Shown here: one piece after another, positions 4,604 to 61,025 of the stretch | How the letters are laid out: each line of letters opens with the position of its first letter | How positions within the stretch are numbered: position 1 is the stretch's first letter | UHGV virus genome: UHGV-1383976 | DNA length: 64,000 nt | Source of the DNA: a virus | Strand: one strand, 5' to 3' | Notes under the pieces: generated by a model | What the model saw: only the letters and a program-made list of their open reading frames with translations | Told to the model about the DNA's origin: nothing | The model's database searches: none | Position numbers and translations under genes: made by a program

Positions 4604-4622
4604 AAAAAAGGCTGGAAGTCAA
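4580..4622 (-). promoter_or_regulatory. class I sigma70-type promoter on the minus strand, overlapping an upstream terminator hairpin
   Basis: Read on the minus strand: TTGACT(in the terminator stem)-17-TATACT, then tATATATAGTAAGAAA and SD AGGAGG, then the ATG of 3791..4603. Confidence 0.5.
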
Positions 4623-4645
4623 ATTTTTGACTTCCAGCTTATATT

Positions 4646-5203: not shown

Positions 5204-5553
5204 ACTTCATCATTATGCCAACGAGATTTCGCGCGATATTTATCCTGAAATAGTTCGTGCGCATTAGTAAGCGAATAAATATCCCAAAATGGGATGATAT
5301 ACAAGGGAATACAATTGGCTAGTGCATAACTGATTTTTCGGCGATCATGCTCTTGTTGTTTCAGTAAGCCACTACGACCGCCAAAGACTTCATAATAATG
5401 TTGTTGACCATTTACTTCGATAAGGCCGTGCGGCGTTGAAAAATCATAACGGAACCGACCGCCGCGCAAATCCGTGTAAGATACTTCTTTTTGATAATCA
5501 ATATGAGATTTTTGAAGTAAATCGCTTATAAAATTTTCATAATGGCTAGCCAT
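5176..5553 (-). CDS. Vsr/DUF559-like PD-(D/E)xK endonuclease (putative)
   Basis: RFRYDFSTPHGLIEVNGQQHY resembles the Vsr-family core. The start is taken as the ATG at 5553, overlapping the ligase stop as TAATG (coupled). Confidence 0.4.
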   Translation of the reverse strand: MASHYENFISDLLQKSHIDYQKEVSYTDLRGGRFRYDFSTPHGLIEVNGQQHYYEVFGGRSGLLKQQEHDRRKISYALANCIPLYIIPFWDIYSLTNAHELFQDKYRAKSRWHNDEVWREHQNSV

Positions 5554-6662
5554 TATATTTCCTCTATTTGACGCCACAAGCACTCAGATTTGTCTTTGTC
5601 ATCACGGAAGCGCACAAATTTAGGATGTCGCAACATTTTATCATCCGTTAGCTGCATTGCGCTTACTTCAATAACACGGCCAGCATAAGATTCGGGATGA
5701 GACTTTATTTCTTCAGTAAGGCCACTAAGAAAACCAATAGGATGAATCTTATCATTATTATACACCGCGATTTCAAGACTGCCGGCCATTCCATAAAAGA
5801 ATGATTTTGTGACAGGTTCATACTGCGCGCCTTTTGAAAATTCTTTATAAAAATTGCCTTTCTTGAACTCGTTAGTTTTAGTATCAAGCCAATACTCCCA
5901 CGTTTCAATCTCTTTGCCAATATAAGTGCGGGTTGGCTTTGTATAGCGTCCAGTAAAGAAACAATCAATTGTGTCTTCAAGTTCCTTCTTTATTTTGAGG
6001 GAAATCTTAGTTGAACGTTTGCCCGGCTGGTAGATACCATTCTCATTTAGAATAACACCACCCTCACCGCCAGCCGCAAGAGTGTCAGCTATCATATTCC
6101 ACAGTTCCTGTCCCCAATAAAACCTTGCGGCAGTTGCATAGAGATAATGATTATCTTTTACTATATCATCAATATGCGCTAAATAAGACATACGAACTTT
6201 TGCTGGTTGATTCATAAGAGATATGCCATCCCAAGCCAGTATATCAAAAGCATAAAAATGAAGCTTATCATTTTTCTGGCGTGCGATTGCCTTGTCGGTA
6301 AGAGCGCCCATTACTTTGGTGACTTCGCTAGATCCTTCGTGTGTTGGAAAATAAATTTCACCAAGAATACAGGTTCCAATCGGCAAGGCATCAAAAAATG
6401 ATTGAAGTTGTGGGACGTGGTCGAGTTTATCAGCAAAATCGCCACTTACACCACGAGAGCGACTAAGTAGCATCATATTGTTATCTTCATCTTTTACAAA
6501 TTTAGAGAAGTAGCCATCCATCTTACGAGCACCCATCCATTCACCAGAAAAGACGCGCTTACGTGCCTCTTCTTTTGGATCACCTTTATAGGACTTTGGA
6601 TGAGCGTAATAACGCATTGGTTCCATCTCTTTGAAATTAAATCCATCTATATAGCCAAGCAT
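5553..6662 (-). CDS. ATP-dependent DNA (or RNA) ligase
   Basis: Motif I KMDGY (KxDG). Motif IV-like GGEGGVIL. Motif V KISLKIKK. 369 aa. Confidence 0.65.
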   Translation of the reverse strand: MLGYIDGFNFKEMEPMRYYAHPKSYKGDPKEEARKRVFSGEWMGARKMDGYFSKFVKDEDNNMMLLSRSRGVSGDFADKLDHVPQLQSFFDALPIGTCILGEIYFPTHEGSSEVTKVMGALTDKAIARQKNDKLHFYAFDILAWDGISLMNQPAKVRMSYLAHIDDIVKDNHYLYATAARFYWGQELWNMIADTLAAGGEGGVILNENGIYQPGKRSTKISLKIKKELEDTIDCFFTGRYTKPTRTYIGKEIETWEYWLDTKTNEFKKGNFYKEFSKGAQYEPVTKSFFYGMAGSLEIAVYNNDKIHPIGFLSGLTEEIKSHPESYAGRVIEVSAMQLTDDKMLRHPKFVRFRDDKDKSECLWRQIEEI

Positions 6663-6734
6663 TTTGTGGCCTCCTATCTTTTCTTTTTTAGAAACATTCT
6701 TTTTGTTTATTTTTCTTGAAGTAATTTTTTCTTT

Positions 6735-6800
6735 TCTTAACTTATAAGTATTACTTATAAGTAAGACACATACATATCTTACTTATAAGTACAACTTACA
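6735..6800. repeat. mini-cluster of 3 ACTTATAAGT palindromic iterons in the leader and promoter region of the leftward ligase operon
   Basis: cttataagtattacttataagtaagacacatacatatcttacttataagtacaac. The same 10-bp palindrome forms the large array at 53.3-53.8 kb. Confidence 0.55.
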
Positions 6801-6832
6801 TTTTATATTATATATTTATAATACGCTTTGGC

Positions 6833-7402
6833 TTACGTGTTTACTATACCAGAATTTTGGAAAGAAGTCAAATTTTTGATAAATCGCTTTGCTTCAACTT
6901 CTAAGTCCTCAAAAGTTTGATTGTTGTCTATTATATAGTCATATTCATAGTTAAGGACATTTGCATCAGCATGATTTGATGCCTTTGAAGCCTCCGCTGA
7001 ATCGCGCCGTATAAGTAAGGTCGTACCATTTGTGGCCTTCTTGAGCTTGTCAATTTCGGCAGGTTCGCGCACATCTACAAAAATAAAACCTTTTCGCGGA
7101 TCGATTTGATAGGACAGCAATTCATCTTCAAACTCGCGCACGTATTTCATTATATCACGGAAAGGCGCATTGTTGTATGCACTCATTAGATCTTTTAAGT
7201 CTGACAGAAATTTACGATCACGTGGTTCTTTTACACCTTGCCAACCAACTTTCGCGGCAACCTCTTTTACCAGATCTACGCTACTACGCGCCCTATAATA
7301 TGGGCCGAGAATAAAGCTACACATTTGTTCAAACGTAGTTTTGCCACTACTGGGCGCACCATTTACTATAACCACATTTACGTGATTTTCAGCTATTTCC
7401 AT
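6833..7402 (-). CDS. P-loop kinase (dNMP kinase or polynucleotide kinase-like)
   Basis: Walker A VVIVNGAPSSGKTT. 189 aa. Confidence 0.5.
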   Translation of the reverse strand: MEIAENHVNVVIVNGAPSSGKTTFEQMCSFILGPYYRARSSVDLVKEVAAKVGWQGVKEPRDRKFLSDLKDLMSAYNNAPFRDIMKYVREFEDELLSYQIDPRKGFIFVDVREPAEIDKLKKATNGTTLLIRRDSAEASKASNHADANVLNYEYDYIIDNNQTFEDLEVEAKRFIKNLTSFQNSGIVNT

Positions 7403-7922
7403 TTACCATTTCTCCTTCAATTTTTTTTCGAGCCTTGACGGCAAGCTTATCAACTCGCTCATTATAATCTATTCCTATGTGCCCGCGCACTTTTTTCCAT
7501 TGAATGCGAGCGTTTTCAAAGTAAGGAATAAGTTCTAGCCAAAGGCCCTTATTTGCAACAGGCTTTTTTTGTGAGTTCAACCAATTGTATCTCTGCCACG
7601 ACTTGTACCATTTCTGTTCATAACAATTATGAATGTAGGCGCTGTCAGTAAATATCACACATTCATCGAAGCCAGTAAAAGGCGTTTGTTCTGTTAGATA
7701 TTTCAGCCCTTCAATAATGCCGCGCATCTCCATTTGGTTGTTGGTTGCGCCAACCTCACCGCCGCTTTGTTCAGCGATTATTCCTTTGCCTTTCTGAATC
7801 AATACAAAGCCCCAACCGCCAATAGCGCCATCCTTGCCATTTTTACTACAAGCGCCATCAGCCCAAAGCTCATACGTCATAAATCGTTGCCCCTTTCGCA
7901 AAATATGTATCATAAATGTCAC
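7389..7922 (-). CDS. ribonuclease H (RNase HI family)
   Basis: WADGAC...TNNQMEMRGIIEGLKYL...FTDSAYIHN...NKGLW match RNase H catalytic motifs. 177 aa. Confidence 0.85.
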   Translation of the reverse strand: MTFMIHILRKGQRFMTYELWADGACSKNGKDGAIGGWGFVLIQKGKGIIAEQSGGEVGATNNQMEMRGIIEGLKYLTEQTPFTGFDECVIFTDSAYIHNCYEQKWYKSWQRYNWLNSQKKPVANKGLWLELIPYFENARIQWKKVRGHIGIDYNERVDKLAVKARKKIEGEMVNGNS

Positions 7923-8337
7923 TAAAAATATTTACATTGCTTACTCGATTAGAGTGAAGTTCAAAAGCAATTAGATCAAGCGGGTCAATTTTGACATCAC
8001 CGCGTGGTTTAGCAAATGCACCAGCATAGCGGAAGTAATGGAATGACTTAGGCCCAAACTCCTTCCAAACAAATTTGACAAATGCAAACCAATTTTTTGC
8101 GGGCAAATAAATTTTGCTATCTTTTGAGAAGATTACAGTTTTAAGCGCAAGGTGTACTATAGCTTTGTAATTATTGTCAGCCGTGTCTACATTTACAGTG
8201 AACTGTATGTCACCACCCTGTATGTAATGCGAAAAATTTAGATAAGTAATCTGACAAAGGTAATCATAATAGTTATACTTATCATTTATGTCAGCAAATT
8301 CATCAGAGCGATCTTCTCCTGTTTTGAAATCATACAT
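7870..8337 (-). CDS. hypothetical protein (155 aa)
   Basis: SD ggaaaaggagg before the ATG at 8337. First gene of the leftward operon. Confidence 0.5.
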   Translation of the reverse strand: MYDFKTGEDRSDEFADINDKYNYYDYLCQITYLNFSHYIQGGDIQFTVNVDTADNNYKAIVHLALKTVIFSKDSKIYLPAKNWFAFVKFVWKEFGPKSFHYFRYAGAFAKPRGDVKIDPLDLIAFELHSNRVSNVNIFSDIYDTYFAKGATIYDV

Positions 8338-8400: not shown

Positions 8401-8487
8401 GTTTCCCCTCTTTTTTGTAAAGTAAGTCTTATAAATTTACTTCTATATGAATAGAGATATTCAAATAATTTTGGGAGGTTTGACATA

Positions 8488-18359: not shown

Positions 18360-19060
18360 ATGCTAGTGCCACCTACACGTGGTGTCCTCTGTTTTCGCTA
18401 AGAGCGCTGGCATATATCCAATTAAATAATACTAACTCAGTGAAGACGGAATTCGATGTTCCGGCTGAGAAATTCCAGCTAGCACAGCAGAAACGAAACA
18501 AGGATACTTGTGGATACTGGACTGAGAGGCCATCGAGAGATGAGCCGAAGTAGAGCGGTCGCTCAAGTGGGAAGAAGAGCAGGAATTGTGCTGAGTGAAT
18601 CGCAAGCAAACGCAGCCGTGGAGTGGCGAGCGCAATAGACAGCTTGGTGAATAGCCAAGCCGAACCCAAGTTAGGTCTTAGTTGGTGCCTGTGGCAATCC
18701 TTGGGAAAACCAATAAGCTCGTTCCGTTGAGACGACAGGGAATGTGAAATCTGTCTTTGACACTCTACAGCATCCGAGTAGCGGAACACAACGGGGACTT
18801 ATAGAAAAGATGGTCAGTAATAATAGAAATTGCTATTTTATCTTTCTGAACATCCCGTGAAAGGTAGAGGTAATCAACCCTCTGGCGGATTAGGCGACAT
18901 TAGACACTTGGGCTATCCAAGAGTAACAAGTCAATGTTGTTGCTGGGGTAAGAAGTGTATGGGCGACGGCCTGTATGCTCAGACTTATCTCCCGCGTGGC
19001 AGAATATGCTTGAAGGTTTATCGAGGTAGGGCGAAGGCCCAGTAATATTTAGTTGGATTT
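18360..19060 (+). ncRNA. GC-rich ORF-free structured region (candidate large ncRNA) downstream of a strong promoter
   Basis: About 700 nt with stops in all frames of all three codon types and visibly higher GC than its surroundings. Only spurious minus-strand ORFs in the track. Confidence 0.35.
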
Positions 19061-21160: not shown

Positions 21161-21481
21161 ATGGATAAATATACTGGCTATTATGAGTGGCATCCATCAG
21201 AACAAGGACTTGAGGATTTTTATTCTGGCCTTTTTACACCTGCAGGGATGGGCTTGGTTGAAAACCAGTATTTGATTATCTATGACTCCGAAGATAAGGT
21301 TATAGATAAATATTTTTGTAAGAACAATGAATTTGAAAAGGTTCATTATATGGCGCTTCAAAGCGATTACTGTGGGGTTATCAAACCACGCAATGTATAT
21401 CAGGAATTGGCTATTCATTCCCTTATGGATAGACGTGTTCCCGTAAAAGTTTTGGGTGGCGTCTTTGGCTCGGGTAAATAA
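21161..21481 (+). CDS. phoH: phoH-like ATPase, exon 1 (N-terminal part, ending inside the Walker A motif)
   Basis: ORF ends ...VKVLGGVFGSGK then a stop, so the P-loop is cut after GK. The C-terminal PhoH homology resumes at 22412-22942. Confidence 0.55.
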   Translation: MDKYTGYYEWHPSEQGLEDFYSGLFTPAGMGLVENQYLIIYDSEDKVIDKYFCKNNEFEKVHYMALQSDYCGVIKPRNVYQELAIHSLMDRRVPVKVLGGVFGSGK

Positions 21482-22426
21482 CTTGCCCCTTCTTAGGGCG
21501 ACCTAAGAATGAAAATCGCGTGAATTGCTGGAAGCCTAAGCCGCAAGGTATGGTAATCAGCAGCCAAGCCGTTTTAGCAACGGAAGGTTCAACGACTATC
21601 CCGGCAGGGAGTAGGGAGCAATCCCGAAGCGCGCGACAACTTTTGTTTTGTTTTTATTTTAATAAAGGAGGTGAGGTTATAAATAAGTGGACAGATGAAC
21701 AAAAAGCAGAAATTATTGATGATTATACCAAAAAAGGTATGACTTTGGCAGAGATTGGAAAAAAATTTCATTCTAAAGGAGATACAATTAGTAAATATCT
21801 AAAGTCTTGGGATATTCCCATCAATCGTAGAAAGAAAAATCGGCTTATGAATGAAAAGTTTTTTTCTATAATTGACTCAGCTGAAAAGAGTTATTTTCTG
21901 GGCTTGTTATTCGCTGATGGTTCAGTTGTTTTAAATAGCGAGCGGGCGCCATATGTTTCTTTAGAATTAGTAGAAAAGGACAAAGAAATATTAGAAATTT
22001 TCCGTTCATTATTAAATTGTCAAAATGACTTATACTACAATAAGCGAGATAATCGGAAGAATGGAACATATACTTTTGGAGTAAGAAGTCAATTACTAGC
22101 TGATGATTTAGCTAAATTTAATATCATTCCAAATAAAACTTATGAAACAACCCAAGTAATTTTCCCAGAAAATTTTCTTATTGATTTTCTAAGAGGGTAT
22201 ATTGATGGCGATGGCTCTATTTATCAAAATGTTTATAAGGCCGTTTGGAATGGACAAGATGCTAAACGAATTATAAACATTCTCTATTTAAAGAACGATG
22301 GCATTGCGCTCTCTCGAAAACGAGAACGAGCTAAGTTAGCTCAACAAAACAAAAGTTGATGATATAGTCTAATCCCTTTTTAAAAATATCGGGAAACCGA
22401 GGGTATAAATGAAGGATCTTCTAATG
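21476..22426 (+). mobile_element. group I intron (boundaries approximate) carrying a LAGLIDADG homing endonuclease gene and splitting the phoH-like gene
   Basis: GC-rich structured 5' part: ggaagcctaagccgcaaggtatggtaatcagcagccaagcc...gttcaacgacta...atcccgaagcg. It is homologous to the 5' part of the second intron at 34.4 kb. Candidate 5' splice sites fall after U21475 or A21478. Candidate 3' ends fall at G22411 or G22426. Confidence 0.5.
21680..22359 (+). CDS. LAGLIDADG homing endonuclease (two-motif) with N-terminal HTH; start uncertain
   Basis: LGLLFADGSV and LRGYIDGDGSI motifs. The ORF is open from 21520, but no canonical start follows the SD aaaggaggtgagg at about 21662. The first ATG is at 21742. 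Confidence 0.7.
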
Positions 22427-33401: not shown

Positions 33402-34389
33402 ATGATAGGCGTAGACCTAAATCAATATCGTAATCTACCTGATTACGCACAACTTAAAAAGGATGGTTATGAGTTCGCCATTATAAAACTGGCAACTGGT
33501 GTAACCTTTACTAACCCGCTTTTTCAAACCCAGTTTAGTGGTTGTAAGTCAGCCGGCCTAAACATCGGCGTTTATACTCGTGCCGACAAGCAACCTACAA
33601 GCGGCGCACAGGAAGCTGCCTATGCACTCAACATACTAGGTAATCGTCATGTAGATTTCCCCATCTACTATGACGTAGAGGGAGAAACACTAAATCTTTC
33701 AAAAGACAAGCTGACTCAGCTGGCTCTTGATTTTGGTAAAGCAATAAAACGCGCAGGATATCGCTGGGGTATTTATACATCCCGCGCACATTTCAAATGC
33801 TTTGACCTTGACAGGCTGAAAGAAGCTGGCGCATCTATATGGTGCGCCGCCTATGATAATCAAGCTGGTATGGAGTGCGACATTTGGCAAAAGTCAGATA
33901 AAGGCTCTATTACAGGATATTCTGGACCAGTTGATGTAGATGTTTTATATAATGAAAGCATAATACAGAAGGAGGAAAATAAAATGAGTTTGAATTTGAT
34001 AAAATGTTTTCAAACACAAGGCGCGTGGTATAATCAAACCACAAATGGAACTCCTGTTGGGGTATGTTGGCACGATACCGGCGCTGGTAACCCAACATTG
34101 AAGCGCTATGTCCAGCCATCTACTAATGACCCCGATTATAATTATTTTATAAACCTTATCGGCAAGAACAATAATGGCAATCACTGGAATCGTATGGCCG
34201 CAAATCAGGCAGGATTGAACGCTTGGATTGGTCAACTCGCGGATGGCAGTGTTGCTACTGTTCAGGCTGGCCCTTGGGAAAAGCGTCCTTGGGGTGTTGG
34301 CTCTGGCAGATACGGTTCACTTAATGGTGATAAGAATGTGCCTAATGATAAGTTTTGGATCCAGTTTGAGATTACATCGTTGCTAGTCT
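33402..34389 (+). CDS. endolysin exon 1: GH25 muramidase domain plus N-terminal half of an amidase_2 (PGRP-type) domain
   Basis: GH25 motifs MIGVDLNQY...FAIIKLATG...GVYTRA.... Then VCWHDTGAGN...AWIGQLADGSVATVQAGPWEKRPWGVGSG...IQFEI matches the first half of amidase_2. Unspliced, the ORF runs to the stop at 34397. Confidence 0.6.
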
Positions 34390-35469
34390 CCGCGTAAAGC
34401 GATTTGCGTGTAAAAATACATATCGAATTGCTGGAAAACCGTAAAGCTATTCTTGCTACAACGTAAGGATGAAACAAGCCTAAGCGTGAAAGCCGCGAAA
34501 GCAGAAAGAAAAGAATAGATGGCGTATGGTTAAATCCTAAGCGCTATATAATTGGCAATCAGCAGCTAAGCCTTGAATAAAGGAAAGTTCAACGACTAAG
34601 TGCCTTGCAAGCGATTGGCAAGGACAGTGGTATGCGGCTCATTGAGCCGAAGATATAGTCTGTGCTTCGAGAGAAATCCGAAGGAGCGAAAGCTCAGTGC
34701 GGGGTAGCGCCCAAAAAGTTTATTTTGAATGGAGAAAGAAATGACTTATAAAGAATTTATTGACAATATTTTAGAAGAACGAGGACGTTTTTCGTGTGGA
34801 GAGGAATATCACGAGAGGCATCACATTCTTCCTAAGTGCAAAGGCGGCACAGATGATAAAGAAAATTTGATTGACTTATTTGCTAAAGAGCATTTTATTG
34901 CGCATAAATTGTTAGCTGAAGAAAATCCTGAAGATATAAGTTTGGTTAGGGCTTATCAATGCATGACAATAGCTAGAAATCCAAAAACTGCACGATATAT
35001 TGCTTCTTCTGAAGAGTATGAGGAAGCAAGAAAAATGTTTTCAGAAGCTCTCAAAGAATTATATAAAGACAAAACAAAGCATCCAAGCTATGGCAAACAT
35101 ATTAGTGAAGAAAGAAAACAACGAATTAGTGAAGCCAATAAAGGAAATAAGTATTGCGTTGGCCGGAAAGTTTCAGAAGAAACACGCAAGAAAATAAGTG
35201 AAGCCAATTCGAACCCTTCCGCCGAAACGCGTGAAAAAATGAGTCAATCTCAAAAGAAGCTCGCACGGTGGGATGGAGCAAAGAATCCTAAAGCTCGAAA
35301 AGTTGTTCGTCTTTCTGATGGGAAAGTTTATGATTGTATTAAATATGCCGCCGAAGAAAATAATATTCCTCTCTCCACTTTCAAAAGTAGATTACACAAA
35401 GGCAAAGGCGATTTTGTGTATTTCGAAGACTATCAAAATAAACAGCACTAAACACAAACAGATGTGACG
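34390..35469 (+). mobile_element. group I intron (boundaries approximate) carrying an HNH homing endonuclease gene and splitting the endolysin within its amidase_2 domain
   Basis: The 5' portion ggcaatcagcagctaagcc...gttcaacgacta...atccgaaggagcgaaagctcag is homologous to the phoH intron core. The amidase_2 reading frame reopens at 35442 and continues in frame into the PG-binding and SH3b domains. Confidence 0.5.
34729..35451 (+). CDS. HNH homing endonuclease with NUMOD3-like C-terminal repeats
   Basis: HHILPKCKGGTDDKENLIDLFAKEHFIAH is an HNH core. Repeats SEERKQRISEANKGN, SEETRKKISEANS and SAETREKMSQSQK. Confidence 0.75.
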   Translation: MEKEMTYKEFIDNILEERGRFSCGEEYHERHHILPKCKGGTDDKENLIDLFAKEHFIAHKLLAEENPEDISLVRAYQCMTIARNPKTARYIASSEEYEEARKMFSEALKELYKDKTKHPSYGKHISEERKQRISEANKGNKYCVGRKVSEETRKKISEANSNPSAETREKMSQSQKKLARWDGAKNPKARKVVRLSDGKVYDCIKYAAEENNIPLSTFKSRLHKGKGDFVYFEDYQNKQH

Positions 35470-40395: not shown

Positions 40396-40401
40396 AAATA
40401 T

Positions 40402-40480
40402 GGGCCGGATAACTCAGATGGTAGAGAACCAGTGCGGTTAGGCGCTGGAGGAGGCGGTGGTTCGAATCCACCTCGGCCCA
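40402..40480 (+). tRNA. atypical tRNA-like gene (79 nt, no encoded CCA) with a 6-bp anticodon stem and an 8-nt loop cgGTTAgg
   Basis: Acceptor gggccgg/tcggccc. Perfect T-arm ggtggttcgaatccacc. Anticodon region ccagtg-cggttagg-cgctgg. Confidence 0.4.
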
Positions 40481-41330
40481 ATTAGATATGAAGGCGACAT
40501 ACAGTTATTATAGTCGCCGGACGTACTGCTCCGTCCATTACGAACAGAGCAGCCCCGCAAAACGAGGGTGAGAGTTGAGTTTGTTGGTTTTACTTGAAAC
40601 CGCCGTCGGGGTAAGTGGCGTTACATCTTACCAAAAAAATCCGTCTGACTGCAGTAAGGGCGGTTGGTTTGTAGGTTTGCCAATAGGTATAAGTCTAGAT
40701 ACCAATAAAATACTTACCAAAGAGGAGTAATATGGCTGAAGTCCTCCAGCGTGGTTGATATGTTGAAATGCCTAGGCCACGCACATATGTCAGTTTAGTT
40801 TAACGAGGGAAAACAACGCCCGTCAAGGCGTAATTTCGGGTTCGAGTCCCGAAACTGTCCTTGGTTTGACAGGCCAAGAAATTTGTCAGGTGCGGCCCTT
40901 TGTCGCCGGTCGAGACTCCGTCCGGAAATGAGCTACGTCTAAGTAAGAAGCGTGAACTTAGCGCTGATGTGCGTGATGCATCGGTTGCGTGTCCAAAACA
41001 CGACAGGTTTGGTTGAGTTTTCTACACAAAATTCAATTGGGTCAGGCCGCCCACAGGATGGCCGCGGGTTCCACTCCCCGAACGAAAAACAATCGGGAAA
41101 TCTCTTGTTTTTCTCAATTTTGTTAGTAGTTAGTCGCATTGATGAAATTGCTTTTTGGAGTAAAGTTGTGAGTAGCTAAAGAAATGACAATTCTTTTTCT
41201 ACTCAAAAAGCCAAGTATCCGCCTCTGCTTGGACATCCGCGCGAGGTTGCGTGTTGATGAAAAGCGTGGAAGGCAGTTATATAATGGGGACTGCCGCATA
41301 GTTGGTTTAGGAGAGTTGCCAGCTACGGAA
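40481..41330. ncRNA. third GC-rich ORF-free region with embedded tRNA-like fragments
   Basis: About 850 nt with no ORF. Contains tRNA-like gtcagtt...acgcc-cgtcaa-ggcgt...tcgggttcgagtcccga-aactgtc (6-nt anticodon loop, no CCA). Confidence 0.3.
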
Positions 41331-50590: not shown

Positions 50591-50644
50591 ACAAAACAAA
50601 ATTAAATGGCGCGTGCGGCCATACCGACGAGAAGGAGAAAGAAA

Positions 50645-51019
50645 ATGACTACTAGAGAGCTTTATGTTGCAGTTATCAATGGTGAGATGAATGACGAGAT
50701 GGTTGAGAAGGCTACCGCTCTTCTGGCTACTATGGACAAGGCAAAGGAAACCGCGAAGAATAAGCCCAGCAAGGCCGCTCTTGCCAATGAGAAGTATCTG
50801 ACCTATCTCAAGGCAAATGTGCTGACCAATGAGGGCAAGATTGGTTCCGAGCTGGCCGATGCGCTTACCGCGGCTTTTGCAGAGGACTTCAGCGAGAAGC
50901 CCTGCTCCGCTACTAAGGTTGCGAGCATCCTCAAGGCCAGTGTCGCTGACGGCACTGTCGTCAAGGAGAAGACCAAGATCGACAAGAGCGAGCGCACCAC
51001 TTACGCGCTGGCTGAGTAA
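50645..51019 (+). CDS. GC-rich gene for a small protein, paralog of 60654..61025 (putative winged-helix or DNA-binding)
   Basis: MTTRELYVAVINGEMNDEMVEKATALLATMDKAKE...VADGTVVKEKTKIDKSERTTYAL aligns with MTAREFYTTMMEKYDLTDELNAYCVEALASLDRRND...VKDGLISVEERKFPKVGKRKVYF. Local GC is clearly above its neighbours. Confidence 0.55.
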   Translation: MTTRELYVAVINGEMNDEMVEKATALLATMDKAKETAKNKPSKAALANEKYLTYLKANVLTNEGKIGSELADALTAAFAEDFSEKPCSATKVASILKASVADGTVVKEKTKIDKSERTTYALAE

Positions 51020-51229
51020 GACCAGTAGCACCTATAAGTGCAATTGCCTTAGAAAGTAAATAGAATACGCGCTCTGTCAATTTGACAGGGCGCTTTTCTT
51101 ATAGGGGAAGGCAAGGCCGCACAAACTAGTGGACGCACGTATAGGTTCGAGAGGAGTCGTCGCTAGGAGCCACGAAAAATTTGAGAAAAACGTATGTGTG
51201 AAGAACTATATTCTAGGAGGGATTTTGAA

Positions 51230-51580
51230 ATGAATTTGATTACAATTAGTAAAGCTGGAGACAATGAAGAACTTTGGACAGATAACTTAGATACATTTGA
51301 AATGTTTTATGGATTGCATATTCCAAAAAATACAAATTGGATTGAAGCTGCAAATGAACTGACTTATGATGCTTTCAAAGTCTGGATGTATTGCGCGGCT
51401 TATCCTTTTGATAAAGAATTGGATGAAGGAATTACAAAATGGTTGTTCAATATGGATAGAGAAGATTTTTGTGCGGCAATCAATGAGTTATCTTATAAAG
51501 GTTATTTGAGAATGGATATTGGTGGTTTTCAATTTAGCCGTGATGGAAGTTGGAAATTTGCTCAGGATTCTGAACATTGA
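51230..51580 (+). CDS. hypothetical protein (116 aa)
   Basis: SD taggaggg before the ATG at 51230. Confidence 0.5.
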   Translation: MNLITISKAGDNEELWTDNLDTFEMFYGLHIPKNTNWIEAANELTYDAFKVWMYCAAYPFDKELDEGITKWLFNMDREDFCAAINELSYKGYLRMDIGGFQFSRDGSWKFAQDSEH

Positions 51581-51678
51581 TATTTGTGTTCGGAAATCCG
51601 CACATGAAAGAAGGTGAAGCTTAGGGAACGTGTTTGTGCCAAGTGTAAAGTTTATAGTTTATAGTTTATGAGGTGTCT

Positions 51679-51888
51679 ATGAAAATGGATGATATAAAAG
51701 ATAAGGTGAGGAGTAAGACTAAGTTATTCAAATGTTATAGTTCAGATTTAGCGGGGTATTTATGTCTAAAAGGGTTCAAAATAATATCTACATCACCAAA
51801 TAAAACAAAACCACAATATAATACTTTTTCTTTTTTTGATACACCTGAACTGCACTCAACAATAGATGATTATATGAATAACAGATAA
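51679..51888 (+). CDS. hypothetical protein (69 aa)
   Basis: SD gaggtg then an ATG. Confidence 0.45.
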   Translation: MKMDDIKDKVRSKTKLFKCYSSDLAGYLCLKGFKIISTSPNKTKPQYNTFSFFDTPELHSTIDDYMNNR

Positions 51889-51938: not shown

Positions 51939-52700
51939 TTGGAATATGATTTTGAAAGCCGCAAGAAAGATACGGCTATTGTGAATTTGACAGATGCTTT
52001 GAATGTAATAGATCTTTATGAGGATGGAGATTTAGAAAAAGCTCTTGAATTAGCTATTGGTTTATTAGCCCTAGGATTTGGGGCGTCATTTGAAACAGAT
52101 GACAGAGAAATACAAAGGTTATTACGTAGTCGAGAATATACATCTGCGCGGGATAACCAAAAATATTTGAATGTAAAGAATACCAACGCCGCGCGTCAAA
52201 GAAATAAGCTTCAGGTTGATGAAATTCTTGATATGCTTAGTAATGGTGCGAAGCAATCAGTTATGGCTGATTCATTAGCTATACCTTTGGCTACTTTGAA
52301 GTATCGAATAAGAGTGATAAAGGAAAAATATCCCGAAGAATATAATGAAGCAATAGAAAAGTGTAAAAAGTATAAAAAGTATAATGAAGTATCAAAAGGT
52401 TGGCGGAATGATAAGGTAAATGATAATGATAAGGATAATGATAAGGTAAATGATAAAGATAATGAAAAAGAAGAAGTAGTTGATTCTGGTTATTTTATCA
52501 ATGGCGATGGTTATATAGAAAGTTTAGGTTTTTATCTTGGAGAAAAGTATAATAAACTTTGGACTGATTCAGAAAAAATTCGTACAGCTTATTTGAAAAG
52601 TCATTTTGATTTTACCGATGAGCAAATTGCTGACATAAATGAGATGGTTGAAGAAGAGAATGAATATCAACGCAATGGGGCTGTTGATTTAGGATTGTAA
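51939..52700 (+). CDS. HTH-containing protein (sigma-70 region 4 or LuxR-like helix) with Asn/Asp/Lys repeat linker; possible transcription regulator
   Basis: TTG start after SD gcaggagg. VDEILDMLSNGAKQSVMADSLAIPLATLKYRIRV resembles a DNA-binding HTH. The NDKVNDNDKDNDKVNDKDNEK segment is encoded by a tandem DNA repeat. Confidence 0.45.
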   Translation: MEYDFESRKKDTAIVNLTDALNVIDLYEDGDLEKALELAIGLLALGFGASFETDDREIQRLLRSREYTSARDNQKYLNVKNTNAARQRNKLQVDEILDMLSNGAKQSVMADSLAIPLATLKYRIRVIKEKYPEEYNEAIEKCKKYKKYNEVSKGWRNDKVNDNDKDNDKVNDKDNEKEEVVDSGYFINGDGYIESLGFYLGEKYNKLWTDSEKIRTAYLKSHFDFTDEQIADINEMVEEENEYQRNGAVDLGL

Positions 52701-52879
52701 AAAAAGTATAAAAAGTATAAAAAAGATAGCTTTGTGATTTTTTAGTTTTTTTATATGCTTACTCAAAGGTGCGGCCGCTGTGTAAGTTGAATTTTCCAAA
52801 AATTTGGAATGGGTATAAGTCTAACTTACCGTGATGACCTTGCGCGATGGCAACGCTGCACCTGTAAATAAGGCAATTG

Positions 52880-52962
52880 TGCAAGTCAAGTCAAATGTCA
52901 AGTCGCTTGTTTCATTTGACATTTGACTTGACACATTTGACATTTGACTTGACAGTGTTGTT
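52880..52962. repeat. inverted plus direct repeat of TTGACATTTGACTTGAC
   Basis: gtcaagtcaaatgtcaagtc-gcttgtttcat-ttgacatttgacttgac-acatttgacatttgacttgac gives a stem of about 17 bp plus a third direct copy, each holding TTGACA boxes. Confidence 0.6.
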
Positions 52963-53269
52963 TGGTTTTGATATTTACCTTACTTACAATCTTACCTACA
53001 CGTGTGTCTTCACCAATTTTGGTAGGAACGCCGCCCTGTAAGTAAGGTAGGAATTTTGGGATGTTAGAATTTTCCAGAAATTCGGTAAGTGCGGCGTGTT
53101 AGAAAAATTCTAGAAATTTTGGGACGTTGAAATTTTCCAAAAATTTCACCGTTGATGGAGTAAGAAAAATTGTGAAAAATTTGTGAATTTTTCAATTGGA
53201 CGAAATTTTTAGGACTGCGAATTTTAGGAGAGTAAGTAAGTCTCCTACACTTTATATTGTAAGTAAGGC

Positions 53270-53830
53270 AGATAAGTTAACTTATAAGTAAAATATATAA
53301 GTAAGACTTATAAGTAAGACTTATAAGTTAACTGTGTGTTCTACTTATAAGTTAATTGTATGTCCTACTTATAAGTTAACTGACAGCCCAACCTATAAGT
53401 TAACCTAGCGACAAACGGACCCAAGTCCGCCTCGCGGGAGGGAGTACAAGCTCCACCTATAAGTCAACTGAATTCCAAACCGCGCGCCCTACTTATAAGT
53501 TAACGGGAGGGCATTGTGTGCGGGAAAGCAACTGAGCCAGCGTGTGTGTGTTGTTGTACTGTAGCTCTCAACTGCGTAGCCAACCTATAAGTTAGCGAAC
53601 ACGTAAGCGAACGCCCACTCCACAACGCTTGGAAACCTAATGGTCGAGGCCTTGTGCGGGGTATGGGGAGGCGTTTTTATGACAAAAAAGGGATGGTAGT
53701 GCAAACTTTTATACAAAATCAAGTTTTTGATTTCACTATCCCAACACAATATCTTGTGGTCGACGGTTAGACGGTCGAACAGTTAGCTAACCTATAAGTA
53801 ATACTTATAAGTAGGGCCTACTTAACCTTT
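53270..53830. repeat. iteron array: at least 12 copies of the palindrome (C)CTTATAAGT(T/A)AAC, a candidate replication origin or protein-binding array
   Basis: cttataagtaaaatatataagtaagacttataagtaagacttataagttaactg...ctacttataagttaattg...ctacttataagttaactg...cctataagttaacc...cctataagtcaactg...ctacttataagttaacgg...cctataagttagcg...cctataagtaatacttataagtaggg. Confidence 0.6.
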
Positions 53831-54329
53831 TCTCCAATTTTTGGGGAAATTTTTTTATGTCAAATTTTGGAAACAAAATGGCGCGGCACGATTGGTTCAT
53901 CAAAAATATTCTTGCCAGAAATTACCCGTAATTCCACAATTCAACTTATTAATAGTCTTGTTCGCGCACGTGTTGCCAAAACTTTTCTAGAGTCCAATCC
54001 TTCTCTCAAAAAATTTTTCGTGGCTCAGAACGAATAAAATCAGTCGTGATGGTGCGGCAACGTTCCAGATGGGGCTTACAGGCGCGCCTTGGAAAATTTT
54101 ACCAGCCGTGGTAAATTTTGGGAAATTTGTAAAATTTTGGGAACAGCTGCTAGACTGGCCGGTCGCCGCGATTCGTATCTCGCGTCATCTTTGTGCGGCC
54201 AACTCAATGGTCAGAAAAGTTGCTTTTTTTTACAATGTAGCGTTTTGTGATTTGTCATACAATAAAAACAGAAATCGCGTATGGAAAATTTTGGAAGCAC
54301 CGCACAATTATTTCCAGCTTTTCGTTTTA

Positions 54330-54480
54330 GCTGTTGGGTATATGAAAAATTTGGCGGCCTCGGTTTTAGGCGGTCTGGCTTTTCCAGCTTTCTCCAGCTT
54401 CTTCCAAATTTCCAAAATTTTCCAGCTTATGGTTCAGCTTTTCCAGCCGCTACAGCTGCAGCTTTTTCAGCTTTTTGACG
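54330..54480. repeat. TTCCAGC(T) microsatellite-like repeat tract
   Basis: ttttccagctttctccagcttcttccaaatttccaaaattttccagcttatggttcagcttttccagccgctacagctgcagctttttcagc. Confidence 0.5.
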
Positions 54481-54589
54481 TCGGCCCTTACGTATCGCCA
54501 CAGGTGCGGCCACACAAGTAGGTATGGCCTCGCCACGGGATTACGCGCGATTGGTAAATTCTGTAAGAAATGGTAAAATTTGGAAGCCG

Positions 54590-54700
54590 TGGTACTTATT
54601 GGATGAATTGTCAAATTCTGGACGAATTGTCAAATTCTGGTAAAAGAATTACCAAATTTTGGTAAAAAGAATTGTCAAATTCTGGTAAAACTTGAAAATA
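54590..54700. repeat. three direct copies of GAATTGTCAAATTCTGG(T/A) with GGTAAAA spacers
   Basis: gaattgtcaaattctggacgaattgtcaaattctggtaaaagaattaccaaattttggtaaaaagaattgtcaaattctggtaaaa. Confidence 0.55.
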
Positions 54701-54761
54701 AAAATTTAGACTACGTTAGTCTAAAACAAAAAAACAAAAGGAAGATTTTTCAATCTCCCTT

Positions 54762-54953
54762 TCATTTCTCATATCTTTCATAACCTATAACTTGAATTTC
54801 TTCATCTTCACCATTCACGCGTTTTATATAATAAATATTATTTTCATATTTTACAAGCATAATTCTTACATAATCAGCATCTTCGGCGCAAGTTGAAAAA
54901 AGTCTTTCATCTTTTATAATTTCACCGTATCTAATAATTTCGTGTGAATCCAT
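54762..54953 (-). CDS. early small protein E1 (63 aa)
   Basis: Leader aaaaggagaatttaaaaATG. Promoter TTGACA-16-TATAAT with the palindrome 6 nt upstream of the -35. The track ORF start at 55016 lies inside the promoter. Confidence 0.55.
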   Translation of the reverse strand: MDSHEIIRYGEIIKDERLFSTCAEDADYVRIMLVKYENNIYYIKRVNGEDEEIQVIGYERYEK

Positions 54954-55060
54954 TTTTAAATTCTCCTTTTCATTTAGTAATTGTATTATACACCAAAATT
55001 CTAAAATGTCAAGCATTATTTTAGACTAACATAGTCTAAAAACAAAAAAAGGAAGATTTT

Positions 55061-55426
55061 TCAATCTTCCTCGCTCTCGTCTTTCTTCTTTGCTTCACGC
55101 TCGGCGGCTTTCGCTTCACGGCGTGCCTTATCGCGTGCTATCTTCTTCTCTTTCTCCGCGGCTTTCGCGGCGGCCTTCTCCGTCTTTTCAGCAAGTTTGA
55201 GCGCGTAGCCCTCGCGCCGTGCGTAGCAGTCGTCTCCATCCTCATCCTTCGGAATTTTTATGACTACCTGCACACAACCTTCTTCCCCATCATCGGCAAC
55301 GACAGGGAAACTAAATACACTTGCCCCTTCAAGTCCTACATCTTCGCCCATTTTCTGCGCATAGCTCATAAAAAATTCTACAAACTTCGCACGAAGAACA
55401 TTAGCATTTTTAACAGTCATTTTCAA
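55061..55426 (-). CDS. early protein with folded N-domain and histone-H1-like Lys/Ala-rich tail (copy A)
   Basis: MKMTVKNANVLRAKFVEFFMSYAQ...FSFPVVADDGEEG...IKIPKDEDGDDCY, then KAAAKAAEKEKKIARDKARREAKAAEREAKKK. Promoter TTGACT-17-TATACT. Terminator ggaagattgaaaaatcttcc plus T7. Confidence 0.6.
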   Translation of the reverse strand: MKMTVKNANVLRAKFVEFFMSYAQKMGEDVGLEGASVFSFPVVADDGEEGCVQVVIKIPKDEDGDDCYARREGYALKLAEKTEKAAAKAAEKEKKIARDKARREAKAAEREAKKKDESEED

Positions 55427-55546
55427 ATTCTCCTTTTCTTATTTTGTGAGTAAAGTATATCACCATTTTCTATAAAAGTCAATAGTTATTTTTTCAATAA
55501 TGCCGCGCGATTAGACTACCGTAGTCTAACTTTTATAAAGCAGGAA

Positions 55547-55792
55547 TTACTCCTGCTCAGTCATTTCATCCTCGGCAGTATCTTCTCTCCAATAAGAGCA
55601 TTCCCCATCGAATTCGGCTTCTTCAAGGATATAAACCAAACCATCTCTTGCTTCTCGAAAATCCTTTTCCCATTTGCCATCTTCCTGACTGTATGCATAC
55701 AGATTATCAAGAATCTTTGCGGCGTGCTTCAAGGCTTCTTCTTCTTCCGAACTAAGAACATACTTCTTTGAAATGCAAGTGCGAACTATCAT
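55547..55792 (-). CDS. early small acidic protein (copy A), 81 aa
   Basis: MIVRTCISKKYVLSSEEEEALKHAAKILDNLYAYSQEDGKWEKDFREA...EDEMTEQE. Leader aaaaggagattttaaaaATG. Promoter TTGACT-17-TATAAT. Confidence 0.55.
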   Translation of the reverse strand: MIVRTCISKKYVLSSEEEEALKHAAKILDNLYAYSQEDGKWEKDFREARDGLVYILEEAEFDGECSYWREDTAEDEMTEQE

Positions 55793-55942
55793 TTTTAAAA
55801 TCTCCTTTTCATAATTTCTGAATAAATTATAACACAAATTTTTTGAAAAGTCAAGTTTTATTTCTTTTGATTTTAGACTAAGTTAGTCTAATTATGGGAT
55901 TTTGTGAAAAATTTCACAAGTTGAGTCAAAAAAGGAAACGTT

Positions 55943-56815
55943 TTACAACGTTTCCATTTTATTCAAGAAGGCTTCAACTGTTCCAAGTTCGCGGAAGGGA
56001 AAATATATAATTCCTATTTCATATTTGCCTTTTGTCCGTTTGTGAATTTCCGCGAAAATTTTGCTTTCAATTTCTGCGTCAGAAAGTGCGGTATGCTCTT
56101 CATCAAAATCAAAATTATTTTCCAAAAAGCGAAAAGATGTTTCTGCACTTGTCTTGAAATATTTCCCGCTTGCCGTTATCCAATCATTATTGACACAAGC
56201 CTGCTTGTATTCATCATTATTGAGTAAGTGCCGCGCCGACAAGCCCCACAAATCAAACAAAGGATAGGCAACGCCATGAAAACGGAAAACTTCGCTTTCA
56301 AATTCTTTGCGGCTTTCGTATCTTCTGCCATTTGCGATATACTCACAAGTGCGCTCTTGCAGGGCAAGCCAAGAATGAAACTGCGCGGAATAAAGATTAT
56401 TTATGTAAAGCTCTGTAAATGGAATTGCTTTCTTGAAGTCAAACATTGAATTATACGCGCCTACGGCGGAAACTTCGGACAAATCGCGCTCAAGAACTGA
56501 TACCGCGCGCTTCCAGTCGGTTAGCTCAATTTCGTCGCGCTCCAGCCGTTCAAGATAAATCGGGCGTTTGCTTGCATAGTATGCGGTATCAAAAACGGCA
56601 GGAACGCTGAAAATCTCACTTATCAGAAAACTGCGGCGGCGATATACATTTCCTTTTGCGTCAATTATCTGCCATCCTAAATCATAAATAAGCGGCTTCG
56701 CAATAGCAACTTTCTGCTTCGCGTCGGCGGGCAGGTCTGCGGCGCATGGTAGTGTAGCAGTTTCACAGTCAAGAATCATGTAGTATTTGCGGCGGCGGTC
56801 GAGTCTCTTTTCCAT
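55943..56815 (-). CDS. DEDD-family 3'-5' exonuclease (DnaQ-like)
   Basis: Exo I YYMILDCETATL. Exo II YNSMFDFKKA. Exo III HTALSDAEIESKIF. Start taken at the ATG at 56815 (MEKRLD) with a leader like the other units. The track start at 56869 is a TTG inside the promoter TTGACT-17-TATAAT. Confidence 0.7.
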   Translation of the reverse strand: MEKRLDRRRKYYMILDCETATLPCAADLPADAKQKVAIAKPLIYDLGWQIIDAKGNVYRRRSFLISEIFSVPAVFDTAYYASKRPIYLERLERDEIELTDWKRAVSVLERDLSEVSAVGAYNSMFDFKKAIPFTELYINNLYSAQFHSWLALQERTCEYIANGRRYESRKEFESEVFRFHGVAYPLFDLWGLSARHLLNNDEYKQACVNNDWITASGKYFKTSAETSFRFLENNFDFDEEHTALSDAEIESKIFAEIHKRTKGKYEIGIIYFPFRELGTVEAFLNKMETL

Positions 56816-56975
56816 TTTTTTCAATTCCTTTTCATATGTTGTCAAGGGTTCGTCTTCGCTCCCTTGCAAGTATTATTATAGCACCACCGCGCAAGAAAGT
56901 CAATCGTTAGTTTTTTCACAAGCCCCAATTTTTAGACTAACTTAGTCTAAAAAATCCATAAAAAAGGGAACTTTT

Positions 56976-57317
56976 TCAAGTCCCCTTTTCGGCCTTTTCG
57001 GCCTTCTTCGCTTCGCGGCGCGCTTCATCCTTGGCAATTTTCTTCGCCTTTTCGGCGGCCTTCTCTTTGGCCTTCTGTGCTTTCTTCTCCTGATTCATGG
57101 CGTACTCTTTACGGCGGCTGTAGCAGTCGTCTCCATCCTCATCCTTCGGAATTTTTATGACTACCTGCACGCTTCCTTCCTCTCCGTCATCAGCGACAAC
57201 GGGGAAGCTGAAAATATTTGTGGCTTCAAGGCCAACATCTTCACCGCTTTCCTGTGCATACTCCATAAAAAACTTTATAAACTTTGCCCGCATTGCATTA
57301 GCATTTTTTACAGTCAT
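56976..57317 (-). CDS. early protein with histone-H1-like Lys/Ala-rich tail (copy B)
   Basis: MTVKNANAMRAKFIKFFMEYAQ...FSFPVVADDGEEG...IKIPKDEDGDDCY, then KKAQKAKEKAAEKAKKIAKDEARREAKKAEKAEK. Paralog of 55061..55426. Confidence 0.6.
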   Translation of the reverse strand: MTVKNANAMRAKFIKFFMEYAQESGEDVGLEATNIFSFPVVADDGEEGSVQVVIKIPKDEDGDDCYSRRKEYAMNQEKKAQKAKEKAAEKAKKIAKDEARREAKKAEKAEKGT

Positions 57318-57448: not shown

Positions 57449-57685
57449 CTAGTTAATTGAAGTATAATTTTCTTCCCAGAAAGTTCCCATATCATTCTGC
57501 TTTAACTCGTTTATAAGATAGTGGATACTATCGTTCGCTTCCTGAAAGTCGCCTTCATACTCTCCATGTTCTTCACTCTTATTATAAAGATTGTCAAGAA
57601 GCTCTGCGGCCTTGTGGAGTGTGTTTATATCTTCATCTGAAAGAAAATAGCGTTTAGTAGAGTAAGTCTTGATAATCATTTTCAA
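57449..57685 (-). CDS. early small acidic protein (copy B), 78 aa
   Basis: MKMIIKTYSTKRYFLSDEDINTLHKAAELLDNLYNKSEEHGEYEGDFQEA. Paralog of 55547..55792. Promoter TTGACT-18-TATACT. Confidence 0.55.
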   Translation of the reverse strand: MKMIIKTYSTKRYFLSDEDINTLHKAAELLDNLYNKSEEHGEYEGDFQEANDSIHYLINELKQNDMGTFWEENYTSIN

Positions 57686-58885: not shown

Positions 58886-59353
58886 TCAATTTGACTTTCC
58901 CAAAATTTTCAGAATTTCTAACATTTCCTTTTCACTGAATGAATTTTCTCCCCATTCTTCACGATTGCGCGCTTCATCATCGAAAAGAATTGCATTTTCG
59001 TCATAGAATGAACATACAGTTGACTTCGGTGTTCCATAAGGAACAACACAAATTTCATCAAAGTGAACACTTTTCAAATGGACAGAAAGCCATTTCTTTT
59101 TTGCCGTCTCAATTTCTGCAAGGTATGCCGCGCTTGCTGTCTTGCTTCCCCAAGAAACAATACAAAGTTTATATCCCATCTTCTTCAATTTGTTCAACTG
59201 TCGCGCGAGTATGCGCATATTGCCGAGTGGGTCTGCGTGCAGATAAGGGCCGACTAATTTCATTTGCAAATTGTCAAGCCAATTAGGGAACGAATAAAAA
59301 TCAACTATTGTACCATCCATATCGAAATAAAGTGCAGGCTTGCGATTATACAT
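58886..59353 (-). CDS. HAD-superfamily phosphatase (5'-nucleotidase-like)
   Basis: LYFDMDGTIVDF is HAD motif I (DxDGT). 155 aa. Promoter TTGACA-17-TATACT. Confidence 0.6.
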   Translation of the reverse strand: MYNRKPALYFDMDGTIVDFYSFPNWLDNLQMKLVGPYLHADPLGNMRILARQLNKLKKMGYKLCIVSWGSKTASAAYLAEIETAKKKWLSVHLKSVHFDEICVVPYGTPKSTVCSFYDENAILFDDEARNREEWGENSFSEKEMLEILKILGKSN

Positions 59354-60653: not shown

Positions 60654-61025
60654 TTACTTCTCAACGAAATAAACCTTGCGCTTGCCCACCTTCGGGAACT
60701 TGCGCTCTTCCACGCTGATAAGGCCGTCCTTCACAAGTCCACGCGCAATCGCGCCCGCCTTGTTGTGCGTGACTTCAAGAGCTTCGCCGAGTTCGGTTTC
60801 CGTCAGACCGTCACAGCCATCAGCCGACAGTGCTTCGATAATGCCCGCGCGGATAGGCGCGTTCTCAGTTGCGGACTTCTCGGCGGCCTTGCTCTTGCGC
60901 GTATCGTTCCGGCGGTCGAGACTTGCGAGAGCTTCCACGCAATATGCGTTCAGCTCGTCAGTCAGGTCGTACTTCTCCATCATGGTGGTGTAGAATTCGC
61001 GTGCAGTCATCTTCTTGTCGTTCAT
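60654..61025 (-). CDS. GC-rich gene for a winged-helix-like protein (paralog of 50645..51019) with a long structured GC-rich leader
   Basis: LTETELGEALEVTHNKAGAIARGLVKDGLISVEERKFPKVGKRKVYF shows an HTH plus wing pattern. Promoter TTGACT-17-TATAAT, then a leader of about 95 nt with hairpins gtgaaggggag...gtccctcac and ggcggcgacc...gcgcc. Confidence 0.55.
   Translation of the reverse strand: MNDKKMTAREFYTTMMEKYDLTDELNAYCVEALASLDRRNDTRKSKAAEKSATENAPIRAGIIEALSADGCDGLTETELGEALEVTHNKAGAIARGLVKDGLISVEERKFPKVGKRKVYFVEK

Follow-up and report, generated by a model that had tools for sequence, protein, structure and literature searches.

What does a stretch of 2 kb that is free of open reading frames (ORFs), packed with repeats and set between two converging groups of genes do for the phage that carries it? 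Few parts of large virulent phage genomes are as poorly understood as their long, conserved and repeat-dense non-coding stretches, and the iss region of phage T5 is, to our knowledge, still without a mechanism after 50 years. We examined such a region (positions 52701-54761) in a 64,000-nucleotide (nt) stretch of the virus genome UHGV-1383976, referred to throughout as the window, whose source is a large virulent gut or rumen phage without a close catalogued relative. An initial annotation had proposed that the region is a replication origin built around an iteron array, or alternatively a site of genome termini or packaging signals. Our analysis indicates with good confidence that it is a conserved platform that serves several sequence-specific DNA-binding proteins in cis, located at the 3' boundary of an early, host-takeover-like gene block. 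Among more specific functions, we tentatively place first a replication origin or control platform of the iteron type, with a binding protein that would also regulate replication genes; a boundary element resembling T5 iss ranks second and an operator array third. The sequence family is new, and the kind of region is already known.

The evidence for this begins with the repeats themselves. We searched the whole window for the palindrome ACTTATAAGT, allowing at most one mismatch, and compared the count with 100 shuffles. Nineteen sites were found against 2.7 expected, a number reached by none of the shuffles (0/100); 11 of the 19 lie at 53280-53812 and three more at 6740-6790. With a degenerate copy at 53296, the array comprises 12 copies over about 540 bp, in agreement with the minimum of 12 first reported. 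The palindrome is contained in a longer, directional iteron consensus (yACyTATAAGTTAAC), and TATAAGTTAAC-type copies occur seven times in direct and once in inverted orientation. Four copies form a tandem array with a period of 24 bp (3.6 copies), and pairs are also found at 13-bp spacing. Plus-oriented GTAAGTAAG half-sites run to the left of the palindromes, and the RTAAGT half-site is present 31 times in the region, compared with about four times per 2 kb elsewhere.

The iterons are one of several repeat families, and the parts of the region are given here from left to right:

52701-54761, no strand: the whole region, a module without ORFs and dense in repeats, set between convergent transcription units; relatives can be aligned with it from end to end
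52768-52862, no strand: GC-rich imperfect dyad GGTGCGGC...GCTGCACC enclosing AATTTTCCAAAAATT (52790-52804), conservation 0.77-0.90
52885-52953, no strand: three copies of TTGACATTTGACTTGAC (one inverted, two direct), overlapping -35-like hexamers
52972-53274, plus strand: half-site zone of GTAAGTAAG / CTTACTTAC with A(n)T(n) motifs, including a direct repeat spaced at 63 bp; the best-conserved block of the region (0.88-0.96)
53275-53600, plus strand: core iteron array with spacings of 13 and 24 bp and variable GC-rich spacers; the palindrome search places sites at 53280, 53296 (degenerate), 53306, 53319, 53343, 53367, 53391, 53455, 53491 and 53583
53597-53680, no strand: conserved GC-rich block with a terminal T-run and no significant RNA fold
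53681-53789, no strand: AT-rich stretch between iterons, by inference a candidate unwinding element
53790-53813, no strand: two iterons spaced at 13 bp (CCTATAAGTAATACTTATAAGT), without variation in the A1 alignment
53829-53859, plus strand: conserved terminator-like hairpin followed by a T-run, seen in the terminator scan and the alignment
53856-54300, no strand: AAATTTTGG / GGAAAATTTT motif family, found by repeat search and conservation, with a highly conserved block at 54201-54290
54312-54476, plus strand: imperfect TTCCAGC(TT) repeat with a period of 9-10
54552-54690, minus strand: GGTAAAATTTGGAAG units with GAATTGTCAAATTCTGG(TAAAA), four copies here and one to four among relatives
54707-54723, no strand: leftmost of 20 perfect TAGACTAnnnTAGTCTA palindromes (early-promoter operator), lying at the right edge of the region
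54729-54770, minus strand: intrinsic terminator of the last early gene, from the terminator scan

All of the repeat families first annotated are present, and far above chance. What had been described as a 17-bp inverted repeat with a third copy corresponds to TTGACATTTGACTTGAC at 52885 (minus), 52916 (plus) and 52937 (plus), the sole copies in 64 kb; folded as single-stranded DNA, this segment gives z = -5.1. Short palindromic motifs of the AAATTTTGG/TTTTCCA type are enriched 20-50 fold, and the three reported GAATTGTCAAATTCTGG copies are exact at 54605, 54624 and 54669, with a degenerate fourth at 54646. The supposed TTCCAGC microsatellite also exists, as an imperfect repeat rather than a perfect microsatellite. 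Read directly from the sequence of the minus strand, the units at 54552-54690 resemble the promoter of the ligase operon described below (TTGACA, an A/T spacer, TGGTA) but lack a good -10. We list ACTTATAAGT, TAGACTAnnnTAGTCTA, TTGACATTTGAC, TTCCAGC and A(n)T(n) as possible binding sites. CodY-like boxes (AATTTTCWGAAAATT) were considered and set aside, with weak enrichment (5/23 matches at up to three mismatches), and the A/T tracts of the region showed no helical periodicity of 10-11 bp.

No gene is hidden in this space. The gap extends from the stop of the plus-strand ORF at 51939-52700 to the end of the minus-strand ORF at 54762-55016, and each of the six frames holds 30-41 stop codons of all three kinds, which therefore excludes a stop-codon-reassigned (recoded) gene. 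One ORF of 150 amino acids (aa) does lie inside (54069-54521, plus strand) and is disrupted by indels of 23 and 14 nt in the related loci L001 and L006; gene callers predicted zero genes in the homologous 2.0-kb gaps of L086, L087, L088 and L089. These borders, frame stops and empty gaps establish the convergent ORF-free gap as real. A scan for promoters and terminators found no strong promoter inside the region and terminators at both edges. Structured non-coding RNA genes are highly improbable occupants. Such genes would account for conserved GC-rich blocks within an AT-rich genome and for two plus-strand terminator-like hairpins, but an Rfam scan of the region gave no credible family match (spurious microRNA matches alone at E<=5), the conserved GC-rich block folded no better than shuffles (z-scores of -0.13 and -1.46), the GC-rich spacers are the least conserved parts, and no convincing promoter was found for such an RNA.

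We traced the region among relatives with a marker, the 308-aa exonuclease-like gene at 55943-56869, which recovered 44 related IMG/VR loci; a second look-up added contigs from ENA and Logan. Seven close relatives align with the region over its full length at 70-84% identity, and their flanking conserved genes are 78-94% identical. Because this alignment is complete while some relatives lack or have replaced the small genes adjoining the region, we count the region as a core element. Conservation is higher in the iteron cores (0.875) than in the GC-rich spacers (0.765), which argues for selection on the iterons, and several blocks of the region exceed 0.9. A clade with a marker of only 55% identity shows the same layout at the same place: ACTTATAAGT palindromes spaced at 13 bp, half-sites (TGTAAGTA/TACTTACA) on their flanks, spacers rich in GC, and arrays of GAAAATTTTCCAAAAAA. 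The iteron, in short, was looked for in relatives and found to be kept, both in the seven and in this more distant clade. Other clades retain a repeat-dense zone in which the dominant repeats differ: TGCTTGTAAAA (14 copies), AACAAATTGTTCCTAA, AAGCTGGAAA (10 copies) or CTTATATATAAG-like palindromes, and, in the distant clade L038/L039, 9-10 copies of AAGCTGGAA, which contains the TTCCAGC motif. Architecture at a constant place with clade-specific repeats characterizes a family of at least 44 contigs, and it is the pattern expected of cis sites that co-evolve with their cognate binding proteins.

This pattern also bears on whether the region might be functionless, a decayed remnant of duplicated early promoter-terminator cassettes. 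The right edge indeed carries an early-type palindrome and promoter-like 22-bp units in one to four copies, and the A(n)T(n) motifs resemble early-promoter spacers. Decay is nonetheless improbable given the full-length identity in seven relatives with blocks above 0.9, the better conservation of iterons than of spacers, and an architecture kept even in clades with a marker 46-55% identical.

The family is remote from catalogued phages. Megablast of positions 52000-55500 against 50,697 phage records returned zero matches. The nearest relatives in culture are unclassified phages of Enterococcus (134-142 kb), with 28% aa identity in the exonuclease and, in common with the window, the gene order HAD hydrolase, one gene, exonuclease. 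The paper on phAss-1 is silent on repeats and ends.

A second line of evidence comes from palindromes outside the array. The leftward cluster at 1-8337 encodes replication and nucleotide-metabolism functions (helicase, ATP-dependent ligase, RNase H and deoxynucleoside monophosphate kinase), and two of its control regions carry sites:

6740-6790, minus strand: three ACTTATAAGT palindromes in the leader of the ligase operon, spanning roughly +46 to +96 and retained in L059, L065 and L071
8420-8442, no strand: variant site AAGTAAGTCTTATAAATTTACTT in the divergent promoter region that heads the leftward replication-gene cluster, identical in L059 and L071

The promoter of the ligase operon is of sigma-70 type, with TTGACT (6871-6866) and TATAGT (6848-6843) separated by 17 nt. 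The threefold palindrome reported for this leader was found again, with its conservation in three relatives now added. Apart from a few singletons, the palindrome family outside the array is confined to these two control regions. Conserved sites in the ligase leader and at the head of the cluster therefore make it plausible that one protein serves both the array and the control of replication genes. To the leader site on which the earlier suggestion of autoregulation by an iteron-binding protein was based, the variant at 8420-8442 is now added.

Several observations lead us to favor, tentatively, an origin or replication-control locus. The first is iteron geometry: with direct copies in a 24-bp tandem, dispersed and inverted copies, internal dyads and abundant half-sites, the array has what iteron origins generally show (at least 3-4 direct repeats of 17-24 bp at regular spacing). 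The palindromes also link the array to control regions for replication and nucleotide metabolism, and the region is transcriptionally quiet, with no strong inner promoter and with terminators at its edges. AT-rich stretches flank and interrupt the array (53100-53260, at 28% GC, and 53681-53789). The better conservation of iterons than of spacers, the full-length alignment in relatives and the clade-specific repeats in a constant architecture count in its favor too. Finally, the 2 kb to the left of the region hold at least four genes for small DNA-binding proteins, and a winged-helix family is found in and beside the early module; their presence speaks for the same function. Known iteron origins (lambda ori, P1 oriR/incA, RepA_N plasmids and the PLE satellite) share with the array directional repeats of ~24 bp, in tandem and each with an inner dyad, as well as extra dispersed copies and copies within promoters or leaders of replication-related genes. 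PLE offers a further likeness, as its 2.7-kb non-coding region combines four repeat families in one long stretch, one of them the RepA-bound origin (PMC7145576).

Under this hypothesis, the central 0.55 kb would consist of directional iterons, each bearing the 10-bp palindrome ACTTATAAGT and bound by a phage-encoded, sequence-specific and probably dimeric protein. Oligomerization of this protein on iterons of 24-bp period may melt a neighboring AT-rich stretch, or the protein may instead be titrated by the array. The same protein would occupy the palindromes at 6740-6790 and 8420-8442, and array occupancy would be coupled to replication-gene expression through this shared binder. The TTGACA-like arrays, A(n)T(n) motifs and TTCCAGC repeats could have an accessory role, bound by other small DNA-binding proteins, by host RNA polymerase or by nucleoid proteins.

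A number of findings weigh against an origin. Origins typically lie at divergent junctions and at minima of GC skew. The array instead sits at a convergent junction, and cumulative GC skew is maximal at ~54 kb and minimal at ~8 kb, a profile confounded by transcription-driven skew; the description of the convergent zone as classic origin architecture did not hold up. The flanking coding DNA is as AT-rich as the AT-rich stretches at the array, which are not distinctive in a genome of 36-40% GC. Searches with Pfam, PHROGs and NCBIfam revealed no Rep, O, RepA_N, DnaA or DnaD-like initiator or helicase loader nearby. DnaA boxes are absent from 52700-54760 (zero matches at up to one mismatch, with a window-wide count equal to chance). 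The locus differs from the iteron origins named above in this lack of a recognizable initiator gene, in its convergent setting at a skew maximum, and in that no host DnaA or integration host factor (IHF) site was positive. At least five other repeat families find no explanation in origin function, and large virulent phages often initiate replication without iteron-binding initiators. Of the interpretation first put forward, the iteron array and its recurrence in the ligase leader stand, and conservation of the array in relatives is added to them; the argument from a convergent zone does not stand.

Which protein might bind the iterons was approached through the small genes near the region, for which protein searches returned generic helix-turn-helix (HTH) and winged-helix matches alone. 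Three candidates are relevant:

51939-52700, plus strand: DUF6291 and HTH protein adjoining the region, with a recognition helix that varies among relatives
60654-61025, minus strand: 123-aa protein with a long helix and a winged helix, from a multi-paralog family; candidate repeat binder
50606-51019, plus strand: 137-aa paralog in the same winged-helix family, with a conserved AATTATAAGTT half-site by its promoter

The first was rejected as the palindrome binder, as its recognition helix differs among relatives with identical iterons; we found no literature on DUF6291. The structural model of the 123-aa protein (predicted local distance difference test, pLDDT, 85.6) matched MarR/TFE-type folds, which are generic; its apparent co-occurrence with the palindrome in tblastn was lost under a profile search, another point that weakens the origin hypothesis. 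Fold searches with two small DNA-binding proteins gave generic MarR-type winged helices only, the second from a model of low confidence (pLDDT 64). The profile search revealed two to four copies of the winged-helix family per locus in most clades, with divergent recognition helices, and in the 55% clade one paralog borders the repeat region, with transcription directed away from it. Members from loci L001-L046 are ~120-140 aa long and share an MT.REF.. N-terminal helix, an LD..N..R..KPSK linker and a C-terminal winged helix, with a weak match to phrog_19455; Enterococcus phage VRE9_4 has a member beside its exonuclease gene. In the window, the gene for the 137-aa protein is followed by a strong terminator (51069-51093) and then by a conserved, unusually GC-rich leader of ~100 nt with no recognizable promoter (51100-51193), ahead of a three-gene DNA-binding cluster. 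Small DNA-binding proteins are also encoded at 51194-51580 and 51673-51888.

The same palindromes could serve a purely regulatory hub, an explanation that we consider unlikely. Here they would be operators of a phage factor for replication (middle) genes, and the 12-site array, placed between convergent early and late or other units, would act as a sink, timer or insulator with no role in replication or packaging. Paired 10-bp palindromes at 13-bp spacing are typical of operators for dimeric regulators, the outlying sites occupy positions +46 to +96 of a sigma-70-type promoter and a divergent promoter region, and several repeats of the region look like parts of promoters that lack a -10. The phage also uses palindromic operators elsewhere (TAGACTAnnnTAGTCTA at all 20 early promoters, discussed below) and possesses a family of MarR-like winged-helix paralogs. 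Palindromes near promoters are seen at 6740-6790 and 8420-8442 but not at the 12-site array, where there is no promoter to regulate; tandem directional iterons of 24 bp with many half-sites exceed the needs of an operator, and maintaining a silent 2 kb across clades would be costly for a mere sink.

A different view of the region comes from what lies to its right. From 54762 on, the window holds a leftward block of small early-type genes, and between 54707 and 63417 the 17-bp palindrome TAGACTAnnnTAGTCTA occurs 20 times without mismatch, where 0.2 occurrences would be expected. Every copy precedes by ~10 bp the -35 of a minus-strand, near-consensus sigma-70 promoter, often with an extended -10, and most of the early genes are followed by an intrinsic terminator of their own. 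The segment looks like an early module of 20 cassettes with a common operator. Related clades have TACGTCTAAA- or TACATCTAA-type elements in place of TAGACTAnnnTAGTCTA, and the module measures about 8-9.4 kb in relatives. Cassette content varies even among close relatives (54.8-55.9 kb, for example, is absent in L001), and paralogous pairs of early genes (55061-55426 with 56976-57317, and 55547-55837 with 57449-57685) indicate cassette duplication inside the module. Among its products are a HAD-type hydrolase (58886-59353, minus strand) and a DEDDh-like exonuclease (55943-56869, minus strand), ordered as in Enterococcus phage H1.

This neighborhood invites comparison with phage T5, whose iss region is the closest architectural match we found. 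In T5, a convergent, ORF-free gap of 1.7 kb (~2 kb here) contains repeats and palindromes, is better conserved than neighboring ORFs and adjoins a ~9-10 kb block of pre-early genes with strong host-type promoters; this layout of gap, repeats, convergent genes and adjoining early block is present here. The ~9-kb early module could accordingly lie within, or constitute, a long terminal repeat, with the 2-kb repeat region as its inner boundary and with cis roles in DNA entry (a pause or stop after the early genes), terminase recognition or duplication of the terminal repeat. We regard this as possible, though on balance rather unlikely. The near-consensus sigma-70 promoters and terminators of the 20 cassettes fit it, and the exonuclease and HAD hydrolase parallel T5 A1 and Dmp in the logic of pre-early host-DNA degradation; a comparison of the hydrolase with Dmp found the DxDGT motif alone in common, and the parallel is one of function, not sequence.

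Host-takeover modules offer a similar analogy. Those of T5, SPO1 and the Kayvirus phage K are located in long terminal repeats; for phage K, the repeats are described in published work. The likeness is in a module of many small genes, each with a near-consensus promoter and a terminator, and the comparison covers the neighboring module, not the repeat region.

There are also differences from T5. T5 iss has pairs of DnaA boxes, which are missing here, and a 131-bp inverted repeat in T5 has its partner inside the early block, for which there is no counterpart: no long inverted-repeat partner occurs at the other end of the module, and a search for a long repeat common to both module boundaries, in T5 fashion, found none. 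Palindromes in replication-gene leaders have no equivalent in T5 and are left unexplained by a boundary function. Relationship to T5 is undetectable, and membership in Demerecviridae is not supported, the nearest cultured relatives being the Enterococcus phages mentioned above. Two-step injection is known solely from T5-like phages.

Contig ends were examined as a possible record of physical termini. Thirteen related contigs end within a few kb of the region, at differing positions inside repeats and not at one shared nucleotide, one Logan contig ends within the 24-bp iteron array, and one contig has a 98-bp self-overlap that spans the region. This last contig (L072, IMGVR_UViG_3300045988_166459, 101 kb) begins with 237 nt (L072:1-237) that are unmatched in relatives, and its last 98 nt equal its own positions 238-335; the oddity probably arose when the repeat region was assembled. 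At the upstream (divergent) end of the early module, close relatives have a variable 24-bp tandem array of CAAATTTGAATTTTGAAATTTTTG (L086:5700-6000, L087:2440-2530), a repeat array on the module's other side that agrees with a T5-like boundary; three contigs (L089/L090/L091) begin within it, and one scaffold is interrupted by an N gap at this point. For our window, the CAAATTTGAATTTTGAAATTTTTG site would fall just past position 64000. We reject these contig ends as evidence of physical termini and read them as points where assembly broke off within tandem repeats; since assemblies collapse terminal repeats, they are neutral on where the physical ends lie. For the region itself as genome termini or packaging site, the alternative offered in the initial annotation, there is no positive evidence, and assemblies run through it.

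The T5-like boundary function has one further point in its favor from unrelated phages. Six marine contigs (L051, L056, L060, L063, L075 and L080) carry 3+2 copies of ACTTATAAGT at 13-bp spacing ~50 bp downstream of terL (for example L063:3224-3316); these are T7-like pelagiphages with a terL like those of HTVC019P and relatives, and the arrays occupy the position of a concatemer junction or terminal repeat. In T7, the concatemer junction is flanked by the short-repeat arrays SRL and SRR. The identical 10-mer, the 13-bp spacing and the location of a short-repeat or palindrome array at a non-coding junction are shared with our region, although the 10-mer was the search pattern itself and the match may be coincidence. 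The difference is that no terminase is near the region here, and none was identified within the window.

A more specific form of the T5 analogy is doubtful in our estimation: that the early module is the long terminal repeat and the repeat region a signal for both injection stop or entry pausing and the repeat boundary. Were this the case, a family of ~100-145-kb gut or rumen phages with Firmicutes-type hosts would have evolved a T5-like first-step transfer independently, with phage-specific palindromes and iterons replacing the DnaA boxes of T5.

The remainder of the window comprises the rightward block at 8989-52700, with genes for tail fibres, endolysin, RtcB and many small proteins, and an RNA content of 15 transfer RNA (tRNA) genes, one ROOL RNA and two group I introns. 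The ROOL RNA is full-length (18412-19059, 272 bits) and lies in a tRNA cluster, with Pro, Thr and Trp upstream and Met and Gly downstream. The introns (21466-21741 and 34334-34683) are followed by homing-endonuclease-like ORFs (21520-22359 and 34729-35451), and the second interrupts the endolysin region. Two tRNA-like genes called by ARAGORN (40401-40481 and 40789-40860) are abnormal in the anticodon loop ('gtta', 4 bases, and 'tc', 2 bases) and score weakly in Rfam (32.5 and 42.9 bits).

These results bear on a widespread, uncultivated family of phages. The tandem repeats explain why assemblies of such phages break at this region. With at least 44 IMG/VR contigs, and others from ENA and Logan, the family provides a tractable comparative system in which clades swap the repeat sequence yet keep the architecture, and in which winged-helix paralogs could be matched to repeats. 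Deciding between an origin, a terminal-repeat or entry boundary and a sink would improve the annotation and engineering of such phages.

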